Source of the DNA: Gammaproteobacteria bacterium | GTDB taxonomy: Bacteria; Pseudomonadota; Gammaproteobacteria; SZUA-229 | Length of the DNA: 24,000 nt | Direction: 5' to 3' | Assembly: GCA_003228405.1 (NCBI GenBank) | Contig: QIDK01000269.1 | Span: forward strand, 2,782 to 26,781 | Part shown: piece after piece, positions 4,666 to 11,284 of the stretch | Layout of the letters: every line of letters starts with the position of its first letter | Numbering within the stretch: the first letter of the stretch is position 1 | Program-made: the position numbers and the translations under genes | The notes under the pieces: generated by a model | What the model was told of the DNA's origin: nothing | Databases searched by the model: none | The model's input: only the letters and a program-made list of their open reading frames with translations

Positions 4666-4971
4666 ATGAACTCATTCACAATTACAAAAAAACTTGCTGT
4701 GGCTACTGCAGCCGCATTTATATTAAGTGTCAGCAGTGGCATTGTAGCGGCGACTAATATCAATCCGTTTGGAATGACTGATCTGAGTCAGTCCTATCAG
4801 CTTGCCGGAAAAGAAGGTAAATGCGGTGAAGGTAAATGTGGTGGTAGCAAGCCTGACGCATCAAAGGGCAAAAGTGGTGAAGGCAAGTGTGGTGGCGGTA
4901 AAGATAAAGCAACAAAGGAAAATGCAGATAAAGCCAGTTCAAAAGGGTCAGTCAGTAAGTGCGGGGGTTAA
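4666..4971 (+). CDS. hvfA: Secreted Cys-repeat peptide, HvfA/bufferin-type RiPP metallophore precursor-like (GKCG repeats)
   Basis: 101 aa with a Sec signal peptide (..SSGIVAA|TN) and then NPFGMTDLSQSYQL. The core is Gly/Lys-rich with four Cys, each in a K-C-G context: KEGKCGEGKCGGSK, SGEGKCGGGK and SVSKCGG at the C-terminus. A good Shine-Dalgarno (gggaga) lies 8 nt upstream. The EGKCG repeat pattern is the hallmark of the HvfA family as I recall it. Confidence 0.7.
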   Translation: MNSFTITKKLAVATAAAFILSVSSGIVAATNINPFGMTDLSQSYQLAGKEGKCGEGKCGGSKPDASKGKSGEGKCGGGKDKATKENADKASSKGSVSKCGG

Positions 4972-5083: not shown

Positions 5084-5688
5084 ATGGGCAAAAATTCAGT
5101 TCGCCATAAGCATGATAAAGGACAGCCACAGGAAGGCATTGCCAGTCAGCTGGGTAGCATGCGTGAAGAAATGCTGCGTTTTGCCACACTTCAGCTACGC
5201 GATACCATTGTGGCTGAAGATGTCGTCCATGAAGCCATTAATGCCGCCCTGGTGCCCGATCGTTATTCAGGGAAGGGCAGCCTGAAAAGCTGGGTGTTTG
5301 CCATATTACGGAATAAGATTATTGATGTTATTCGTGAACGCAGTCGTCATCCGACTGAGCAGTTTACTGAAGACGATGGAAGTGATCTGAATGAGCCGTT
5401 TAATCAGAAAGGCGCCTGGAAACAGACCCAGAAACCGCTAACTGGGGACATCCAGAAGCATTTCTGGCGAATGAACAGTTCTGGATTATTTTTGAGATTT
5501 GCATTAATAAGCTACCGCAGAATACGGCACAGGTATTTATGATGCGCGAGCACCTTGGGCTTGAACTTAAGGAAATATGTAACGAGCTTAATCTTAGTGA
5601 GAGTAATGCCTGGGTCATTATGCATCGGGCACGGGCGCAATTGCGCAAATGTCTGGAAAAGAATTTTATTCATGGAGCACAGTTATAA
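5084..5688 (+). pseudogene. ECF-type sigma-70 family RNA polymerase sigma factor, interrupted by a frameshift (apparent 1-nt deletion or 2-nt insertion near 5437..5445)
   Basis: The frame starting at 5084 encodes region 2 (EDVVHEAINAAL, SLKSWVFAILRNKIIDVIRE) and then runs into nonsense (..GDIQKHFWRMNSSGLFLRFALISYRRIRHRYL*). The frame open from 5404 reads ..NWGHPEAFLANEQFWIIFEICINKLPQNTAQVFMMREHLGLELKEICNELNLSESNAWVIMHRARAQLRKCLEKNFIHGAQL* (stop 5686..5688). That is a clean region 4 with its helix-turn-helix. Both frames are open across 5404..5542. Confidence 0.8.
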
Positions 5689-5861
5689 TGATGAATTGTA
5701 AGCATGCGAGCCAGTTAATTTCCCGCTCACAGGATCAAAAACTAACACTAAAAGAGCGCATTTATTTAAAGTTTCATTTAGTCATGTGTTCCGGTTGCAC
5801 TAACTATAGAAAACAGATGGAATATATTCGTAAGGCAATGCAGCAGCTTAGAGAGTGGTGA
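5688..5861 (+). CDS. Small zinc-binding (ZAS, zf-HC2) anti-sigma factor
   Basis: Its ATG overlaps the sigma stop codon (TAATG at 5686..5690). The 57-aa product is MMNCKHASQLISRSQDQKLTLKERIYLKFHLVMCSGCTNYRKQMEYIRKAMQQLREW. It carries the H-x3-C-x2-C ZAS motif (HLVMCSGC) plus an N-terminal Cys/His, and has no TM segment. The track ORF start at 5649 lies inside the sigma reading frame and is less likely. Confidence 0.7.
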   Translation: MMNCKHASQLISRSQDQKLTLKERIYLKFHLVMCSGCTNYRKQMEYIRKAMQQLREW

Positions 5862-5868
5862 TATTTAT

Positions 5869-6316
5869 ATGTCTGATCTGCAACGAAAATTTAAAGCCTA
5901 TTATTTTACCGCCGTTTTCAGCATGATATTTGCGGTAACAGGTTTTAGTTACAACGCCTGGCGCATGGAGGTTAGCGAAGCTAACAATAATATACGCACG
6001 GCTTCATAATATACGCACGGCTTCATTCGAAGTTTTAACTGAACTGGCTGAATTGCAACAGCTTATTTATGCAGCACATTATGATCAGGATATGGTTGCA
6101 GGCAATCCCCGCACAGGCTGGGTTAAGGTTGGGCTTATTGTCGATCTTAGTGCGCTCATTAGTGAGCCGGTGTCAGCAAAGGCATTACAGTTAAAGAAAA
6201 CATGGGCCGCTAACTGGGGCAATATGCAGAGCAGCAGGCAGGCCACTGATTTACTTGTAAATGGGATTGATGCGGTGCGGGTGGAAATAAAACAGTCACT
6301 AAAAAATCTTGAATAA
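5869..6316 (+). pseudogene. Single-pass membrane protein of unknown function, disrupted by a 19-bp tandem duplication
   Basis: ATG 5869 gives MSDLQRKFKAYYFTAVFSMIFAVTGFSYNAWRMEVSEANNNIRTAS and then a stop at 6007..6009, inside the second repeat copy. Removing one 19-bp copy joins it in frame to FEVLTELAELQQLIYAAHYDQDMV...KQSLKNLE*, which is the track ORF 6053..6316. The restored protein is about 142 aa with one N-terminal TM helix. Confidence 0.7.
5987..6024. repeat. Perfect 19-bp direct tandem duplication (ATAATATACGCACGGCTTC x2)
   Basis: Positions 5987..6005 and 6006..6024 are identical. The match continues 2 nt further (AT) after each copy. Confidence 0.95.
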
Positions 6317-6333
6317 ACAAATAATATAAAAAT

Positions 6334-6909
6334 ATGATTGATTATTTACTAAACCTGTCAACCCAACCAGCATGGATATTTCTAGCCATCATACTATCTT
6401 CCTATCTACTGGAAGACGTGGCGATTATTTCAGCCGCGGTTATGGCGGCCGATCAGATGATTTCCGTGCAGCTGGCTGTTTACGCAATTCTTATCGGTAT
6501 TATCAGTGGCGATATCGGTCTGTATTTACTGGGTTACCTGTTGAAAAAACATTCTGTATTTCAACAGTGGTTAGTGAAGAAAAATCGTCAGCAACATTAT
6601 GCGACCCTGTTTGGGCATAATCTGATTAAAAATATTCTGCTAATTCGCTTTGTGCCAGGTTTGCGCTTTGTTTGCTACACATCCTGTGGCCTGTTCAGGG
6701 CACATTTTGGACAGTTTATTATAGCTGTGACTGTTGCGGGAGTTATCTGGGTGTTTGCTGTGTTTACTCTGATATACCAGTTAGGAAGCAGTATATGGTT
6801 AGAGCATAGCGACTGGAAATGGATATTGATTCCTGTGGTGCTAATGCTGTTAGTCGGTACTAATCGACAAATCATGCGGCGTATACAACTGCAGGAAAAA
6901 CAAATATGA
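6334..6909 (+). CDS. DedA / VTT (SNARE-associated) family inner-membrane protein
   Basis: 191 aa and polytopic. It has the DedA-type segments LLEDVAIISAAVMAA and LIRFVPGLRFVCYTSCG (an R-x-x-P-x-x-R...G motif). Its stop overlaps the next gene's start (ATGA at 6906..6909). Confidence 0.7.
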   Translation: MIDYLLNLSTQPAWIFLAIILSSYLLEDVAIISAAVMAADQMISVQLAVYAILIGIISGDIGLYLLGYLLKKHSVFQQWLVKKNRQQHYATLFGHNLIKNILLIRFVPGLRFVCYTSCGLFRAHFGQFIIAVTVAGVIWVFAVFTLIYQLGSSIWLEHSDWKWILIPVVLMLLVGTNRQIMRRIQLQEKQI

Positions 6910-8030
6910 CGCAGCCACTAAAATCAATTCAGGAAGTGCATCGTGGTATGCCAGAACTGACAACGACTACTAAAAAGAGTACATCGTTTTTTGAATTCTG
7001 GCCGAGTCACATTATTTACCTGCCCATTGTAATACAATGGCTATACCTGGCTTTGCGCTATCGTAGTTTGACCTTGCCGTTAATTTCCAATCCAGGGATA
7101 TATCTTGGCGGCATGGTCGGCGAGTCCAAATCAGCAGTACTGGCATTAGCCGGTAAAAAAGCGGCTGAGCACGTGGCGCCTTATATATCTATTTTTAATG
7201 ATAAATTTAAGTCAATTGATATCCGCCTGGGAGAATCAATAGATAAAATGAAGGCAGCCAGACTCAAATTTCCAGTTATTGCCAAACCAGATATGGGATG
7301 TCGAGGGGCAGGCGTAAAAATAATTGCTGATGAGGAGGCGCTAAGAAATTATATTCAGGAATTTCCAGATAAGGCGACTTTACTGTTACAGCAAAAAATC
7401 CCCTATGAAGCAGAAGCGGGTATTTTTTATATTCGTCACCCGGATAGACAGCAGGGAGAAATATTTTCAATGACACTGAAATATGCACCCTATGTAAGCG
7501 GAGATGGAAAACGTAGTTTGCGTCAGTTGATAAAGGATGACCAGCGCGCAGCTAAAATTTCCAGTCTCTATTTTAGCCGACATCAGAATAAGCTGAACAA
7601 TATAATTCCTGAGAACCGTGCCTTCCGACTAGCTTTTGCCGGAAGCCACTGCAAAGGCAGCATATTTAGAAATGGTAACACTTACATCACTGAAAAGCTG
7701 CGGCAGAAGTTTGATGATATCAGTAACGATATAGATGGTTTTTATTATGGGCGTTTTGATGTGCGCTTTGAAAGCATAGAAAAATTGATGCAGGGTGAAA
7801 ATTTTCACATTCTTGAAATCAATGGCGCCAGTTCAGAGGCCGCCCATATCTGGGATGTGAATACAAGTTTTAATGAAGTATATAGAACTCTGTTTTATCA
7901 ATATCGTACCTTATTTTATATAGGTAATATAAATCGTCACGCAGGTTACAAACCACCGCCGATCTGGCAATTGTATAACGCCTGGCGGCAGGAAAAAAAA
8001 CTTGTTAATCAATATCCAGCTACGGACTAG
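6906..8030 (+). CDS. Membrane-anchored ATP-grasp family carboxylate-amine ligase (D-Ala-D-Ala ligase/RimK-like fold); substrate unknown
   Basis: 374 aa. There is an N-terminal hydrophobic helix (FFEFWPSHIIYLPIVIQWLYLALRY). ATP-grasp signatures follow: FPVIAKPDMGCRGAGVKII, LLLQQKIPYEAEAGIFYI and the C-terminal FHILEINGASSEAAHIWD. Confidence 0.7.
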   Translation: MTQPLKSIQEVHRGMPELTTTTKKSTSFFEFWPSHIIYLPIVIQWLYLALRYRSLTLPLISNPGIYLGGMVGESKSAVLALAGKKAAEHVAPYISIFNDKFKSIDIRLGESIDKMKAARLKFPVIAKPDMGCRGAGVKIIADEEALRNYIQEFPDKATLLLQQKIPYEAEAGIFYIRHPDRQQGEIFSMTLKYAPYVSGDGKRSLRQLIKDDQRAAKISSLYFSRHQNKLNNIIPENRAFRLAFAGSHCKGSIFRNGNTYITEKLRQKFDDISNDIDGFYYGRFDVRFESIEKLMQGENFHILEINGASSEAAHIWDVNTSFNEVYRTLFYQYRTLFYIGNINRHAGYKPPPIWQLYNAWRQEKKLVNQYPATD

Positions 8031-8035
8031 ACTCT

Positions 8036-9802
8036 ATGAAATCACAGGCCACCCCCTTTCAGTTAGGTGTTGCAGAAAATAGTGCAGTTTACTGGCACTG
8101 GCTGGCACATGTCAGTGAGAGCCTGCTTGGTCTGAGTGAACTAGACGCCTATTATCGGCAGCGGCAAAGCAATATGAGTAGCCGCGAATTCTTACGCTAC
8201 ACACTGGAAAAACTCGATGTTAATTACACAGTTGCCAGTGGAAATTGTCAGCAGATACCCGGCGAAGGTACGACTATTGTTGTCGCTAATCACCCCTATG
8301 GTGCTATAGAAGGCGTTATGCTGGCAGAACTTCTTCTCACGCGCAGAAGTGATGTGAAGGTGCTGGCGAATCATTATCTGCAACGTATTGATGAACTATC
8401 CGAGTTATTTATTGGTGTTGATGTGTTTGAGAATAACCGCTCAAAAAAATCAAATTCCCATGGCGTCAAACAGGCATTGAATCATTTAAAAAAGGGCGGA
8501 CTATTGCTGGTATTTCCTGCTGGAGAAGTCTCCAGTTTTAATTTTAAAAATAGAAAAATTACGGACAGGAAATGGAACCGGATTATCGGTATGCTGGCTC
8601 GTAAAACCTGTGCCTGCACCACACCGGTTTATATTGAAGGCCATAATAGTAGATGGTTCCATTTTGCAGGTTTGTTACATCCACGCTTACGAACATTATT
8701 GCTGGTTAGAGAAATGCTCAATAAACGGCAGAAGATCGTTAATTTACATATTGGAGAGACCATTCCCCATGACGAACTAAAAACGCTTTCATCAGATGAA
8801 GATATTACCGATTATTTTCGGCTGAATACCTATTTGCTGATTAACCAGGCAAAAAATAAATCTGCTATAGTCAAAAAAAATAAGCGATCAATGCAAACTA
8901 TCGCCCCGGCCGTTGAAAAACAAAAACTACAAAATGATATAGATGCGTTGGGCGCTGATACATTACTATTAACCAGGGATATTTTTTCAGTGTATTGCAC
9001 TACAGCGCAGCAGTTGCCCAATGTGTTACAGGAAATTGGGCGTTTACGGGAAATAACCTTCCGCCAGGTGGCTGAAGGAACGGGCTTTGCGCAAGATCTG
9101 GATGACTATGATAATCATTATTTACATATGTTTATCTGGAACAGCGAACAGCAGGAAATTGTTGGAGCCTATCGGCTGGGTCTGGTGGATAAACTGGTTA
9201 AAAAATCTGGCCTGAAAGCCCTCTACAGTCGAAGTCTGTTTCGTTATGAGAAAACATTTGTGGATGATCTGGGAATGTCAATTGAAATGGGGCGCTCGTT
9301 TATTCGCGTGGAATATCAGCGTAGTTTGAGCGCGCTACTGCTCTTATGGAAGGGTATTAGCACCTTTGTGTCACGCAATCCACAATATACGACACTATTT
9401 GGCCCGGTCAGTATCAGTAGTGGCTATTCAGAGTTATCGCGTCATCTTATGACGCAGTTCCTGCAGTTGCATCACTATGACCCTGTGCGGGCAAAAATGG
9501 TGAAAGCAAGCAGCCCACAGAAAAAATTACCGGATATTATCTGGAGCAGAAAAATACTCGAGAGACTAAAAGATAATCAGTTGATTTCCAGACTGATTTA
9601 TCGCATGGAAGGCGATAAGGGCCTGCCCATAATACTCAAACAATACCTGGGCCTGAATGGTAAACTGGTTAGTTTTAATCTAGACAGAAAATTTAACAAT
9701 ACATTAGATGGAATGATCATAGTAGATCTGCTGAAAGTCTCAGAAAAATTACTCGGCAAATATATGGGCAAAGAAAACGCAAACAACTATTTAAACAGGT
9801 AA
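8036..9802 (+). CDS. OlsF-like bifunctional acyltransferase: an N-terminal PlsC-type (lysolipid O-acyl) domain fused to a C-terminal OlsB/COG3176-type GNAT N-acyltransferase
   Basis: 588 aa. The N-terminal domain has VVANHPYGAIEG (an HX4E variant of the HX4D acyltransferase motif) and LLLVFPAGEVS (FPxG motif). The C-terminal domain has LREITFRQVAEGTGFAQDLDDYDNHYLHMFIW..IVGAYRLG, typical of the putative-hemolysin/OlsB-like GNATs. The domain order matches OlsF-type aminolipid synthases. Confidence 0.7.
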   Translation: MKSQATPFQLGVAENSAVYWHWLAHVSESLLGLSELDAYYRQRQSNMSSREFLRYTLEKLDVNYTVASGNCQQIPGEGTTIVVANHPYGAIEGVMLAELLLTRRSDVKVLANHYLQRIDELSELFIGVDVFENNRSKKSNSHGVKQALNHLKKGGLLLVFPAGEVSSFNFKNRKITDRKWNRIIGMLARKTCACTTPVYIEGHNSRWFHFAGLLHPRLRTLLLVREMLNKRQKIVNLHIGETIPHDELKTLSSDEDITDYFRLNTYLLINQAKNKSAIVKKNKRSMQTIAPAVEKQKLQNDIDALGADTLLLTRDIFSVYCTTAQQLPNVLQEIGRLREITFRQVAEGTGFAQDLDDYDNHYLHMFIWNSEQQEIVGAYRLGLVDKLVKKSGLKALYSRSLFRYEKTFVDDLGMSIEMGRSFIRVEYQRSLSALLLLWKGISTFVSRNPQYTTLFGPVSISSGYSELSRHLMTQFLQLHHYDPVRAKMVKASSPQKKLPDIIWSRKILERLKDNQLISRLIYRMEGDKGLPIILKQYLGLNGKLVSFNLDRKFNNTLDGMIIVDLLKVSEKLLGKYMGKENANNYLNR

Positions 9803-9806
9803 TTAT

Positions 9807-10343
9807 ATGCATGATGTTATAAAAGGTTGTATAGAAACTCTGGATCAGGCTGAGAAGTTTCTTAATTCTGTTAGTGATGAAGCGTATATAAAAATTGTTA
9901 AGCCATTTTTTATCAGCTCATCAGGTGAGCACATGAGGCATATTATGGACCATTTCCAGGAGCTTAAAAAAAGCTGGCAAAGCGGTATTATAGATTTTAA
10001 CAATCGAAGACGGGGCAGCCGCATTGAACAGAGTAGAAAATTAGCACTAGTACAGATTGAAGAAATAAAACAATGGCTTTCAAAACTGGATGAGAATGAA
10101 TTAAATCAGCCTCTATCGATTAAAACAGAGGTGGCAATATCAGAAACCCTGATAGTTGAAGTGACATCAACGCTGGCTCGTGAACTGGTGTTTGCCTCCA
10201 GCCATGCAGTGCACCATTATTCGAGCATAGCAACGGCGATACAGATGCAGGAAGTTATATTAGATAAAAACTTCGGTATTGCACCTGCCACAGCAACTTA
10301 TTTACGTAGTGGCGATGAATCATGTGTACGCTCACCTGGTTAA
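9807..10343 (+). CDS. DinB-superfamily (four-helix-bundle, His-triad metal-binding) protein
   Basis: 178 aa. His-rich motifs sit at the positions expected for DinB-like proteins: SGEHMRHIMDHF near the N-terminus and ASSHAVHHYS near the C-terminus. It starts 4 nt after the acyltransferase stop. Confidence 0.5.
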   Translation: MHDVIKGCIETLDQAEKFLNSVSDEAYIKIVKPFFISSSGEHMRHIMDHFQELKKSWQSGIIDFNNRRRGSRIEQSRKLALVQIEEIKQWLSKLDENELNQPLSIKTEVAISETLIVEVTSTLARELVFASSHAVHHYSSIATAIQMQEVILDKNFGIAPATATYLRSGDESCVRSPG

Positions 10344-11056
10344 TTCACAAAAAGGGTTACGAGGTTTTTTTTAATCGTGATGAGCAGCTCAGTCGACCCA
10401 GAGCAACCCCTCCCTGCTTCGCTATAAACACAAAGAGCATCATGCCGGTAGACCCACAGTCTAAAGGCACATGGATTGCGGTTAATAGTTGCGGCGTAAG
10501 CCTGTGTTTACTCAATAATTATCAGGCATATTCAGACGAAAAAACAGTGACAAAAAATAATGAAAATTACACCAGCCGTGGCCTGATAATACCGGCTTTA
10601 TTGCAACTACAAACCAGTGATCATATTTATCATAAGCTTAAAAAAATAAACCTGGTAAAGTATTTGCCGTTTTCACTATGTGTCTTTTCGGCTAACTTAA
10701 ATACCCACACGACAGAAATTACTATTTATCAATGGGACGGTATTAAGCTAAGCCAACTGGCTGCAGATCAGCCCGTGGTTTCATCGGCAGTTTTGCTGAC
10801 TGAAGTGAAGCAACAACGCAGTGATTTATTTAATCAAGTGACTAAGCAGAATGCCAATTCTAAAGATCACTTAGCGTACCATTCATCTCACAAACCGGAA
10901 AAAGGTAAATACTCTGTGTGCATGCATCGACAAGATGCATGCACACAGAGCTTAAGTCACATCAGTGTTAATAACAGCATTGTGTTTCGTTATCATGATG
11001 GCCCACCATGTGAAGATGAGCACTGGTCAGAAACAAAGATGGAAAAATCAGTCTGA
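10322..11056 (+). CDS. NRDE-family (TANGO2-like, Ntn-hydrolase-fold) protein
   Basis: 244 aa. It begins MCTLTW, so Cys2 is the predicted N-terminal nucleophile. The eponymous NRDE motif is at residues 18..21 (FFNRDEQLSRP). The start overlaps the DinB-like ORF by 22 nt. Confidence 0.65.
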   Translation: MCTLTWLIHKKGYEVFFNRDEQLSRPRATPPCFAINTKSIMPVDPQSKGTWIAVNSCGVSLCLLNNYQAYSDEKTVTKNNENYTSRGLIIPALLQLQTSDHIYHKLKKINLVKYLPFSLCVFSANLNTHTTEITIYQWDGIKLSQLAADQPVVSSAVLLTEVKQQRSDLFNQVTKQNANSKDHLAYHSSHKPEKGKYSVCMHRQDACTQSLSHISVNNSIVFRYHDGPPCEDEHWSETKMEKSV

Positions 11057-11284
11057 CTAATGTTTTTTATCTTTCATCATAAAAAATATTTTTATAAGTA
11101 ACAAAATCAGCGCAATGCCATGCAAAAACAGATCAAAGATATCAATCGGCCTGCTGAGGCTGTCATTAAATAGCATTCTTAGTTTCTGCAACAAATGAGG
11201 CTCTGATACGAAAGGAGCCAGTGCCAGAATAATAGCGATAATAGCCAGGGTAGGAGTTGGGATATAACTCAGGAATTTTCTCAT
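11057..11284 (-). CDS. Small two-helix membrane protein of unknown function
   Basis: 75 aa: MRKFLSYIPTPTLAIIAIILALAPFVSEPHLLQKLRMLFNDSLSRPIDIFDLFLHGIALILLLIKIFFMMKDKKH. It has two hydrophobic helices, and APF..EPHL..KL.ML resembles a conserved small-protein family I recall seeing in proteobacteria. Its stop codon directly abuts the NRDE stop. Confidence 0.5.
   Translation of the reverse strand: MRKFLSYIPTPTLAIIAIILALAPFVSEPHLLQKLRMLFNDSLSRPIDIFDLFLHGIALILLLIKIFFMMKDKKH

Follow-up and report, generated by a model that had tools for sequence, protein, structure and literature searches.

What is a DedA-family membrane protein, coupled to an ATP-grasp ligase, doing in one operon with a synthase for ornithine lipid (OL)? 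The question is raised by a five-gene block at positions 6334..11056 of a 24,000-nucleotide (nt) stretch of DNA from a member of the Gammaproteobacteria (SZUA-229 lineage; contig QIDK01000269.1), the whole of which is called the window below. A sequence-only reading of the window had proposed that the block encodes a pathway for a modified aminolipid. The observation behind this proposal is confirmed, and its interpretation is supported in part. We find that the new part of the block is its accessory set and not the synthase. The overall best explanation, to which we give a probability of about 0.55, is a stress-regulated OL operon in which DedA and the ATP-grasp protein would act together as a headgroup ligase and flippase.

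A coupled operon of five genes

The block consists of five open reading frames (ORFs), all on the + strand; a check against the ORF list gave the same coordinates as the sequence-only reading:

6334..6909, + strand, DedA/VTT-domain membrane protein, 191 amino acids (aa) (Pfam VTT_dom, 3.7e-13; homologue of VCA0651)
6906..8030, + strand, divergent ATP-grasp carboxylate-amine ligase, 374 aa (predicted fold and motifs; homologue of VCA0650)
8036..9802, + strand, OlsF-type bifunctional OL synthase, 588 aa (Pfam, NCBIfam; 49% identity to VCA0646)
9807..10343, + strand, DinB-superfamily-like four-helix protein, 178 aa (borderline DinB_2; homologue of VCA0649)
10322..11056, + strand, TANGO2/NRDE-family protein, putative Cys-Ntn amidohydrolase, 244 aa (Pfam TANGO2, 5e-15; homologue of VCA0648)

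Read directly from the DNA, the junctions are an ATGA overlap at 6906-6909 (−4 nt) between the DedA and ATP-grasp genes, TAG-ACTCT-ATG (+5 nt) between the ATP-grasp and OlsF genes, TAA-TTAT-ATG (+4 nt) between the OlsF and DinB-like genes and a 22-nt overlap (−22) between the DinB-like and TANGO2-like genes. Both the spacings and the single coupled operon proposed earlier are thus borne out. Profile searches of all five proteins against Pfam and NCBIfam, which the sequence-only reading had suggested, matched the VTT domain, the OlsF-type domains and TANGO2; DinB_2 was borderline, and the ATP-grasp protein stayed below all cutoffs. An Rfam search of the window gave no matches.

The block had also been described as AT-richer than its flanks. 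The direction of this difference was right (41.2% GC vs 44.3% in the rest of the window), but its size is small, and genes elsewhere in the window, such as TAtT (42.0%) and orf458 (42.3%), have GC contents that overlap with those of the individual genes of the block. A horizontal-transfer island was considered and rejected: the GC gap of 3 points lies inside the gene-to-gene spread and was therefore dismissed as a signal.

The synthase and its Vibrio cholerae counterpart

The 588-aa protein combines in one polypeptide a PlsC-like N-terminal part (PF19576 Acyltransf_2, 2.1e-18, residues 46-271; PF01553 Acyltransferase, 2.2e-7) and an OlsB-like GNAT N-acyltransferase at the C-terminus (PF13444 Acetyltransf_5, 5.9e-20, residues 337-438). 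It aligns with positions 21-569 of the 570 positions of the NCBIfam OlsF model NF052615 (418 bits, E 6e-125); these matches confirm the OlsF architecture assigned to it earlier. The two-domain architecture and the full-length model match are common to this protein and to OlsF of Serratia proteamaculans and Flavobacterium johnsoniae, while its score of 418 bits against an equivalog cutoff of 620 sets it apart from the Serratia/Flavobacterium model. The validated synthase of V. cholerae, VCA0646, also scores under that cutoff (437.6 bits). The cutoff leaves out a proven member of the Vibrio-type clade, and failing to reach it therefore says little. VCA0646 is only 30% identical to Serratia OlsF (PMC12186959), and OlsF enzymes can take more than one amino acid: the Flavobacterium enzyme yields both OL and a lysine lipid (PMC12971839).

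VCA0646 (P0231 in our set) was retrieved by a homologue search with a Vibrio OlsF from a similar cluster and identified by its C-terminus AQHYLCSVT and by mapping published primers; the 180-aa gene upstream is VCA0649. The window protein is 49% identical to VCA0646 over 555 aa, the blocks NHPxGAIEG and FPAGEVS are common to both and the two clusters are syntenic. Expressed alone in E. coli, VCA0646 gives unmodified OL, as determined by thin-layer chromatography (TLC) and liquid chromatography-tandem mass spectrometry (LC-MS/MS) (Vences-Guzman et al. 2025, PMC12186959). Because this homologue needs no partner to make plain OL, we read the 588-aa protein in the same way: it very probably makes ordinary OL and does not represent a new route of synthesis. 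In V. cholerae, OL production at low salinity depends on VCA0646, which also contributes to polymyxin tolerance; when the gene is deleted, neither OL nor lyso-OL is found at low salinity despite an intact VCA0650 (PMC12186959). V. cholerae also has a phosphate-regulated paralogue, VC0489.

The V. cholerae locus, of whose existence and characterised OlsF the sequence-only reading was unaware, has the order DedA (VCA0651), ATP-grasp (VCA0650), DinB-like (VCA0649), TANGO2 (VCA0648), YHS (VCA0647), OlsF (VCA0646). Identities of the remaining window proteins to their counterparts, with positions in the V. cholerae locus (L004), are as follows:

6456-7037, VCA0651, window DedA, 41% identity
7034-8170, VCA0650, window ATP-grasp, 51% identity
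8259-8801, VCA0649, window DinB-like protein, 40% identity
8801-9547, VCA0648, window TANGO2-like protein, 36% identity

The same families lie on a single strand in both clusters, with the DedA and ATP-grasp genes overlapping in both. The order differs, DedA-ATP-grasp-DinB-TANGO2-YHS-OlsF in V. cholerae vs DedA-ATP-grasp-OlsF-DinB-TANGO2 in the window, where the YHS gene is lacking; the window clade, unlike the V. cholerae cluster, has a sigma/anti-sigma factor pair of the extracytoplasmic function (ECF) type upstream. Judged by sequence and gene content, the window block is the local form of the VCA0651-VCA0646 cluster.

In V. cholerae, vca0646-0649 has been described as a HapR-activated ‘cell death’ operon with gene functions given as unknown, and overexpression of vca0646 with vca0647 led to cell death (bioRxiv 10.1101/2024.09.23.614608). 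In RNA-seq data VCA0650-1, VCA0648-9 and VCA0646-7 change together, and the cluster goes down alongside copA, copG, msrB, trx2, grx, zraP-like genes and an ECF sigma factor (PMC7600106). Both the study of VCA0646 and that of the ‘cell death’ operon treat the operon as four genes, without mention of VCA0650/0651 (PMC12186959; bioRxiv 10.1101/2024.09.23.614608). Our comparison suggests that these two studies of vca0646-0649 left out a pair of genes, lying upstream, that belong to the set functionally.

DedA and a divergent ATP-grasp protein as one unit

The 191-aa protein has several hydrophobic segments and matches PF09335 VTT_dom with 50.5 bits (cutoff 33.9). Against models of UptA-type undecaprenyl-phosphate transporters it reached ~17 bits, below the equivalog cutoffs of 250-300.

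ATP-grasp enzymes activate a carboxylate as an acyl-phosphate and couple it to an amine. The 374-aa protein had no Pfam match above cutoff (best CPSase_L_D2, 16.1 vs 19.8), and its NCBIfam matches did not exceed 20 bits (cutoffs 143-850). An AlphaFold (AF2) model built on 30 homologues has pLDDT 90.5 and pTM 0.89, and its top Foldseek matches, with probability 1.0, are the G domain of cyanophycin synthetases (CphA1/2), GshAB and Ddl (TM-scores 0.35-0.50, 11-18% identity). The best PDB match of the family profile is CphA2 (2.5e-5), in which IIEINAAPG aligns with ILEINGAS. The motifs AKPDxGCRG, EAGxFY and ExNG are invariant, and K127, E170, R283, D285, E304 and N306, residues of the nucleotide/Mg type, are unchanged in the 30 sequences; the Lys of AKPDxGCRG and the Mg site E-x-N close to the C-terminus are both conserved throughout. 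From predicted fold and motifs, the protein is a real, if very divergent, ATP-grasp ligase.

The ATP-grasp fold and Mg/ATP motifs are common to this ligase and to CphA2, GshAB and Ddl; it differs from them in that a short conserved segment with a hydrophobic helix replaces the usual N-terminal substrate domain. The helix (residues ~28-52), which had been taken for a transmembrane segment, is indeed conserved and hydrophobic, but only moderately so (best 19-residue Kyte-Doolittle mean 1.27), and it contains invariant polar and Pro residues. Because of these residues we regard a monotopic or interfacial anchor as equally likely to a true transmembrane helix.

Many family members (P0030, P0047, P0055, P0079 and others) are labelled ‘D-alanine--D-alanine ligase’ in NCBI and UniRef. 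This name is not supported, as the protein matches neither Dala_Dala_lig_N nor Dala_Dala_lig_C and is 11-16% identical to Ddl structures; its PDB profile match to a Ddl spans only 47 residues.

A profile search of 1.84 billion cluster representatives retrieved 3,407 representatives of the ATP-grasp family at E<=1e-3, 1,441 of them at E<=1e-30. Among the best 150, 87 are DedA-ATP-grasp fusions and four are fusions of alpha/beta hydrolase (abH), DedA and ATP-grasp; 55 are stand-alone. In the fusions DedA precedes the ATP-grasp part, and the two are joined at the point that corresponds to the boundary between the DedA and ATP-grasp genes in the window. As most representatives are fused, the ATGA-coupled pair of the window can be read as the split form of one functional unit; on this comparison DedA and the ATP-grasp protein are a single two-part unit, divided here at ATGA. 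The sequence-only reading overlooked this strongest clue. It was right, on less evidence than is now at hand, to single out the ATP-grasp protein as the unusual member of the block, and it had correctly placed it outside the described aminolipid pathways: literature searches turned up nothing linking an ATP-grasp protein or DedA with OL, nor any description of the DedA-ATP-grasp unit.

One DedA-ATP-grasp fusion (L175, 6001-7740) stands alone, without aminolipid genes in its vicinity; upstream of it, on the opposite strand, is an operon for a pstSCAB-like phosphate ABC transporter.

Gene neighbourhoods of the unit

The scan for ATP-grasp relatives, with one genome per species, gave at least 590 stretches, of which the best 80 were taken. 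The closest species-representative sequence among these, from an Acidiferrobacteraceae metagenome-assembled genome (MAG), is 56% identical to the window protein; three nearer relatives of the window (60-75% identity) have the gene order of the window. Counts for the branch of the family that includes the window (gamma branch) refer to 69 species-representative loci that have 4 kb or more of sequence on each side. An OlsF-type gene is present in 65 of these loci, DedA in 52, a DinB-like gene in 50, YHS in 47, TANGO2 in 37 and a DoxX/MauE-like membrane protein (p150) in 31. There are at least five gene orders:

DedA-ATP-grasp-OlsF-DinB-TANGO2 (window type): three Marinomonas and an Acidiferrobacteraceae MAG
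DedA-ATP-grasp-DinB-TANGO2-YHS-(p150)-OlsF: Vibrio, Aliivibrio, Photobacterium, Grimontia, Enterovibrio and many Marinomonas
DedA-ATP-grasp-YHS-p150-OlsF, with DinB on the opposite strand and no TANGO2: Endozoicomonas
ATP-grasp-OlsF alone: Pseudohongiella, SAR86, OM182
ATP-grasp-OlsF-DinB: Lysobacterales

The five functions thus co-occur in many genera and in several orders, as the sequence-only reading had expected. Its view of DinB and NRDE as pathway members holds in that both co-occur widely with the others; it does not hold in the sense of necessity, since they are dispensable, being present in 72% and 54%, respectively, of the loci of the gamma branch. Across 74 loci the pairwise identities of the ATP-grasp proteins correlate with those of the OlsF proteins (r = 0.94), a value that fits co-inheritance and for which shared phylogeny alone would suffice.

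A YHS-domain ‘(seleno)protein’ with a signal peptide (NF041384, 121-163 bits; L004 9558-10004, L173 8615-9145 and others), presumably periplasmic and often joined by the DoxX/MauE-like membrane protein, is a regular member of the set in the majority of lineages; its gene is missing from the window.

A second branch was collected by a metagenome scan seeded with alphaproteobacterial-type members, and its loci were searched by tblastn with a Pfam-verified OlsB-like protein. DedA is present in all 30 loci with at least 4 kb of flank, often with an alpha/beta hydrolase upstream. In 25 of 80 loci the opposite strand carries, within a few kb, a gene for an OlsB-like GNAT protein, whose best NCBIfam match is OlsB (143 bits). 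In a few loci an O-acyltransferase gene comes after the ATP-grasp gene, with similarity to OlsF in the N-terminal half only. One or the other of these aminolipid acyltransferases was found in 15 of the 30 well-flanked loci.

In one further locus (L172) a DedA-ATP-grasp fusion stands between an alpha/beta hydrolase and an OlsF gene. Another operon (L173/L174) brings together, in this order, OlsB-like, OlsA-like, DinB-like (hhalign 99.8%) and TANGO2-like (30% identity, with Cys2 and NRDE) genes, an abH-DedA-ATP-grasp fusion and YHS; the OlsB-like and OlsA-like proteins of L173 score ~150, below the equivalog cutoffs of 300-350. This operon thus pairs genes of the OlsBA pathway, of the type known from Sinorhizobium meliloti, with DinB-like, TANGO2, DedA-ATP-grasp and YHS genes, whereas the window uses the fused OlsF. 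Altogether the DedA-ATP-grasp unit accompanies three kinds of acyltransferase: the OlsF fusion, the OlsB-like plus OlsA-like pair and the O-acyltransferase alone. Because the accessory set is found beside both the OlsF and the OlsBA routes, common operon descent or co-regulation alone is no easy explanation. We consider it likely that the unit is tied to aminolipid metabolism.

The DinB-like and TANGO2-like proteins

The 178-aa protein scored 24.7 against the DinB_2 cutoff of 24.8. Fifteen of its 23 relatives match DinB_2 or DinB (best E-value 4e-8), and the best PDB match of the family is a DinB-like protein (E 0.013). Residues H45, R67, R69, E74, R125, E126, H133, H136 and H137 are invariant in the family.

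The 244-aa protein matches Pfam TANGO2 with 56.8 bits (cutoff 22.6) and has both Cys2 and NRDE; among its relatives Cys2 (in an MC(S/T) start) is conserved in 43 of 44 and NRDE in 44 of 44. The best PDB match of the profile is human TANGO2 (8sv7/9bwa, E 0.016), with NRDE, GxW and RG aligned. The two proteins share the Pfam family, Cys2 and these motifs, but their kinship is distant. For human TANGO2, Cys-Ntn hydrolysis of fatty-acid amides >500 Da has been proposed, with its substrate unidentified (PMC13044924).

Two features of the DNA at this end of the operon were recorded separately. Inside the TANGO2-like gene lies an inverted repeat (10912-10950) with perfect arms of 17 nt around a 5-nt loop (predicted RNA hairpin of −32.7 kcal/mol), where it codes for the conserved peptide SVCMHRxDAC; relatives carry a partial palindrome only. 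A 75-aa ORF with two hydrophobic segments (11057-11284, − strand) converges on the TANGO2-like gene, its end abutting the stop codon; it matches no family and lacks counterparts in relatives.

The upstream region

Two genes upstream of the block, overlooked by the sequence-only reading, encode a sigma factor and an anti-sigma factor:

5084..5670, + strand, ECF sigma factor gene, frameshifted (region 2 in 5099-5437 and region 4 in 5419-5667, in different frames)
5688..5861, + strand, short zinc-binding (HxxxCxxC) anti-sigma factor (Pfam zf-HC2, 7e-5; NF052368, 71.5 vs cutoff 50)

The sigma factor gene has a 1-nt frameshift near 5437; one added base restores a 201-aa protein with 55-69% identity to the intact sigma factors of two close relatives (L086, L087). 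The frameshift may mark a pseudogene or a sequencing error. The anti-sigma factor is 58-60% identical to those of the same relatives. In two of three close relatives an intact ECF sigma gene and a short zinc anti-sigma gene lie directly upstream of DedA, and from this arrangement the pair probably controls the operon. Alignment of the three regions upstream of the sigma genes showed no common promoter motif. A generic scan stayed at background (24 sigma-70 promoters vs 20.6 expected; six terminators vs 5.9).

Between the anti-sigma gene and DedA there is a 142-aa ORF (5869-6316, + strand) with an N-terminal hydrophobic segment, absent from L086 and L087. It is broken by a perfect 19-nt tandem duplication, ATAATATACGCACGGCTTC (5987-6005 and 6006-6024); deletion of one repeat copy regains the frame. 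Further upstream, 4666-4971 (+ strand) encodes an HvfA-like metallophore precursor of the class of ribosomally synthesized and post-translationally modified peptides (RiPPs), with KCGExKCG repeats and a signal-like N-terminus (NF050137, 27.8 vs cutoff 19.5). No MNIO/HvfB-type partner gene is visible beside it.

Possible function of the operon

Under the explanation that we favour, the C-terminal GNAT domain of OlsF would N-acylate ornithine with a 3-hydroxy fatty acid, as indicated by close homology, and the N-terminal PlsC-like domain would esterify the hydroxyl to give ordinary OL, unaided by the neighbouring genes. OL has exactly one free carboxylate, adjoining the N-acyl amide. The ATP-grasp protein would act at the cytoplasmic face of the inner membrane, activating a carboxylate as an acyl-phosphate. 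Its candidate substrate is the free alpha-carboxylate of the N-acyl-ornithine headgroup, which would then be joined to an amine; we name this group because it is chemically like the C-terminal carboxylates of peptides on which the CphA G domain, GshB, Ddl and RimK act. The DedA half may present or flip the lipid, following the synthase-plus-flippase logic of MprF, and the TANGO2-like Cys-Ntn protein may cleave an amide bond in that lipid, so as to turn it over or edit it. Expression would be set by the upstream ECF sigma factor and zinc anti-sigma factor. Headgroup ligation combined with flipping is our best guess for the role of the DedA-ATP-grasp unit. The full scheme, in which the unit extends the headgroup of OL, or of a similar lipid built on an N-acyl amino acid, in the cytoplasmic leaflet and moves the resulting aminolipid outward, with the TANGO2-like protein as the matching amidase, is put forward tentatively, as a possibility.

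Two known systems offer a comparison. In MprF, an aminoacyl-phosphatidylglycerol synthase fused to a flippase, a cytoplasmic headgroup-modifying enzyme is combined with a lipid-translocating domain, and the system is linked to resistance to cationic peptides, a logic like that proposed for DedA-ATP-grasp (VCA0646 affects polymyxin tolerance); MprF differs in its aminoacyl-tRNA chemistry and its non-DedA flippase, and the comparison is one of logic, with no homology. General Pfam and NCBIfam scans turned up no match to an MprF domain, though no dedicated MprF comparison was made. The second system is cerilipin of Gluconobacter cerinus, where ATP-dependent transfer of taurine to the alpha-carboxylate of OL is known biochemically, with the gene unidentified (PMC12971839); the earlier remark that enzymes for headgroup-extended aminolipids are poorly defined is thus supported. 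This ATP-requiring amidation of the OL carboxylate is the reaction that an OL-linked ATP-grasp enzyme could perform. No taurine-OL has been reported from bacteria carrying a window-type cluster.

Several points weigh against the favoured explanation. The substrate of the ATP-grasp protein is a matter of pure inference. Modified OL has not been described from V. cholerae. OlsF (VCA0646) by itself suffices for OL, and wild-type V. cholerae, which has the ATP-grasp, DinB and TANGO2 genes, shows OL and material at the origin only when labelled with [14C]ornithine (PMC12186959). For the modified-aminolipid pathway of the sequence-only reading, such a plain-OL result comes near to contradiction; it is not decisive, as the TLC was one-dimensional and expression of VCA0650/0651 was unmonitored. 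No Gluconobacter or other Acetobacteraceae homologue is present among the top 120 matches of an alphaproteobacterial query, and the link to the cerilipin taurine ligase is therefore without support, though also not disproved. An aminolipid acyltransferase is missing from the vicinity of the unit in 15 of the 30 well-flanked second-branch loci and in a few gamma and alpha loci (Curvivirga L018/L024, L050, L076, L084), so the unit can stand apart from synthase genes; among the neighbours of L018, L050, L076 and L084 nothing is lipid-specific except an alpha/beta hydrolase. The co-regulated V. cholerae genes, together with the YHS, DoxX-like, DinB and zinc anti-sigma proteins, are a hint of metal, thiol or redox stress.

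If this hint is followed, the accessory set would be a copper/thiol/oxidative envelope stress module, its chemistry unrelated to OL and its genes merely co-regulated and co-located with the synthase; the product of the ATP-grasp protein could, for example, be a small peptide or a compound resembling a thiol, exported by DedA. DinB proteins are usually metal- or thiol-dependent. YHS is a metal-binding domain, here with a signal peptide, p150 resembles MauE/DoxX, the upstream anti-sigma factor has the zinc-binding HxxxCxxC motif, an HvfA-like precursor of a copper-binding RiPP is encoded at 4666-4971 and GshAB is among the top structural matches of the ATP-grasp protein. In the second branch, every other locus is without an aminolipid gene close by, and the V. 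cholerae cluster co-varies with genes for copper handling, thioredoxin, glutaredoxin and MsrB (PMC7600106). Yet co-regulation does not easily explain why three non-orthologous acyltransferase arrangements adjoin the unit in many gene orders, or why streamlined SAR86, OM182 and Pseudohongiella genomes retain the ATP-grasp-OlsF pair only; moreover, the fusion with DedA, and in some lineages with an alpha/beta hydrolase, suggests a membrane-lipid substrate. We think such a module rather unlikely.

The ATP-grasp protein could instead be an ATP-dependent N-acyl-amino-acid (lyso-aminolipid) synthase, activating a free (3-hydroxy) fatty acid and coupling it to an amino acid in a fourth route like that of OlsH; its product, possibly with an amino acid other than ornithine, would feed the O-acyltransferase. 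Such a product would escape [14C]ornithine labelling, and in the alphaproteobacterial loci L089-L093 and L096 abH-DedA-ATP-grasp is followed by an O-acyltransferase that corresponds to the N-terminal half of OlsF, without GNAT. OlsH is a precedent for ATP-dependent N-acylation of ornithine (PMC12971839). Against this, gamma-branch OlsF has an N-acyltransferase domain of its own, which suffices, and OL and lyso-OL both disappear at low salinity on deletion of VCA0646 with VCA0650 intact. The nearest structural relatives of the ATP-grasp protein act on carboxylates of amino acids or peptides, and activation of a fatty-acid carboxylate is not known to us from any ATP-grasp enzyme. This route appears improbable. 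A dipeptide or unusual amino acid made by the ATP-grasp protein as the acceptor for OlsF, so that the product is a dipeptide lipid and not OL, would agree with the fold, which resembles Ddl and L-amino-acid ligases, and with the capacity of OlsF for more than one amino acid (OL and lysine lipid in Flavobacterium, PMC12971839). We hold it to be very improbable, since a ligase of soluble substrates has no obvious reason to be fused to a DedA membrane domain, and the VCA0646-dependent native product of V. cholerae co-migrates with OL, the identity of which was confirmed by LC-MS/MS in E. coli.

Implications

OL synthesis and the V. cholerae orthologue of the synthase were already known; its near-constant DedA-ATP-grasp companion was not found in the searched literature. 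The tie to an enzyme gives a handle on the role of the DedA domain, and the unit is a candidate for ATP-dependent headgroup chemistry of aminolipids, where the gene for the taurine-OL ligase has been unidentified since the 1970s. The co-operonic TANGO2 homologue offers a bacterial system for the idea of lipid-amide hydrolysis, the human TANGO2 being a disease protein. If the proposed headgroup ligase/flippase and amidase are real, they would provide the first biochemical job for a DedA subfamily and the first natural substrate class for the TANGO2 family, whose human member causes metabolic disease, and could reveal an enzyme of the kind, long looked for, by which the carboxylate of OL is amidated.

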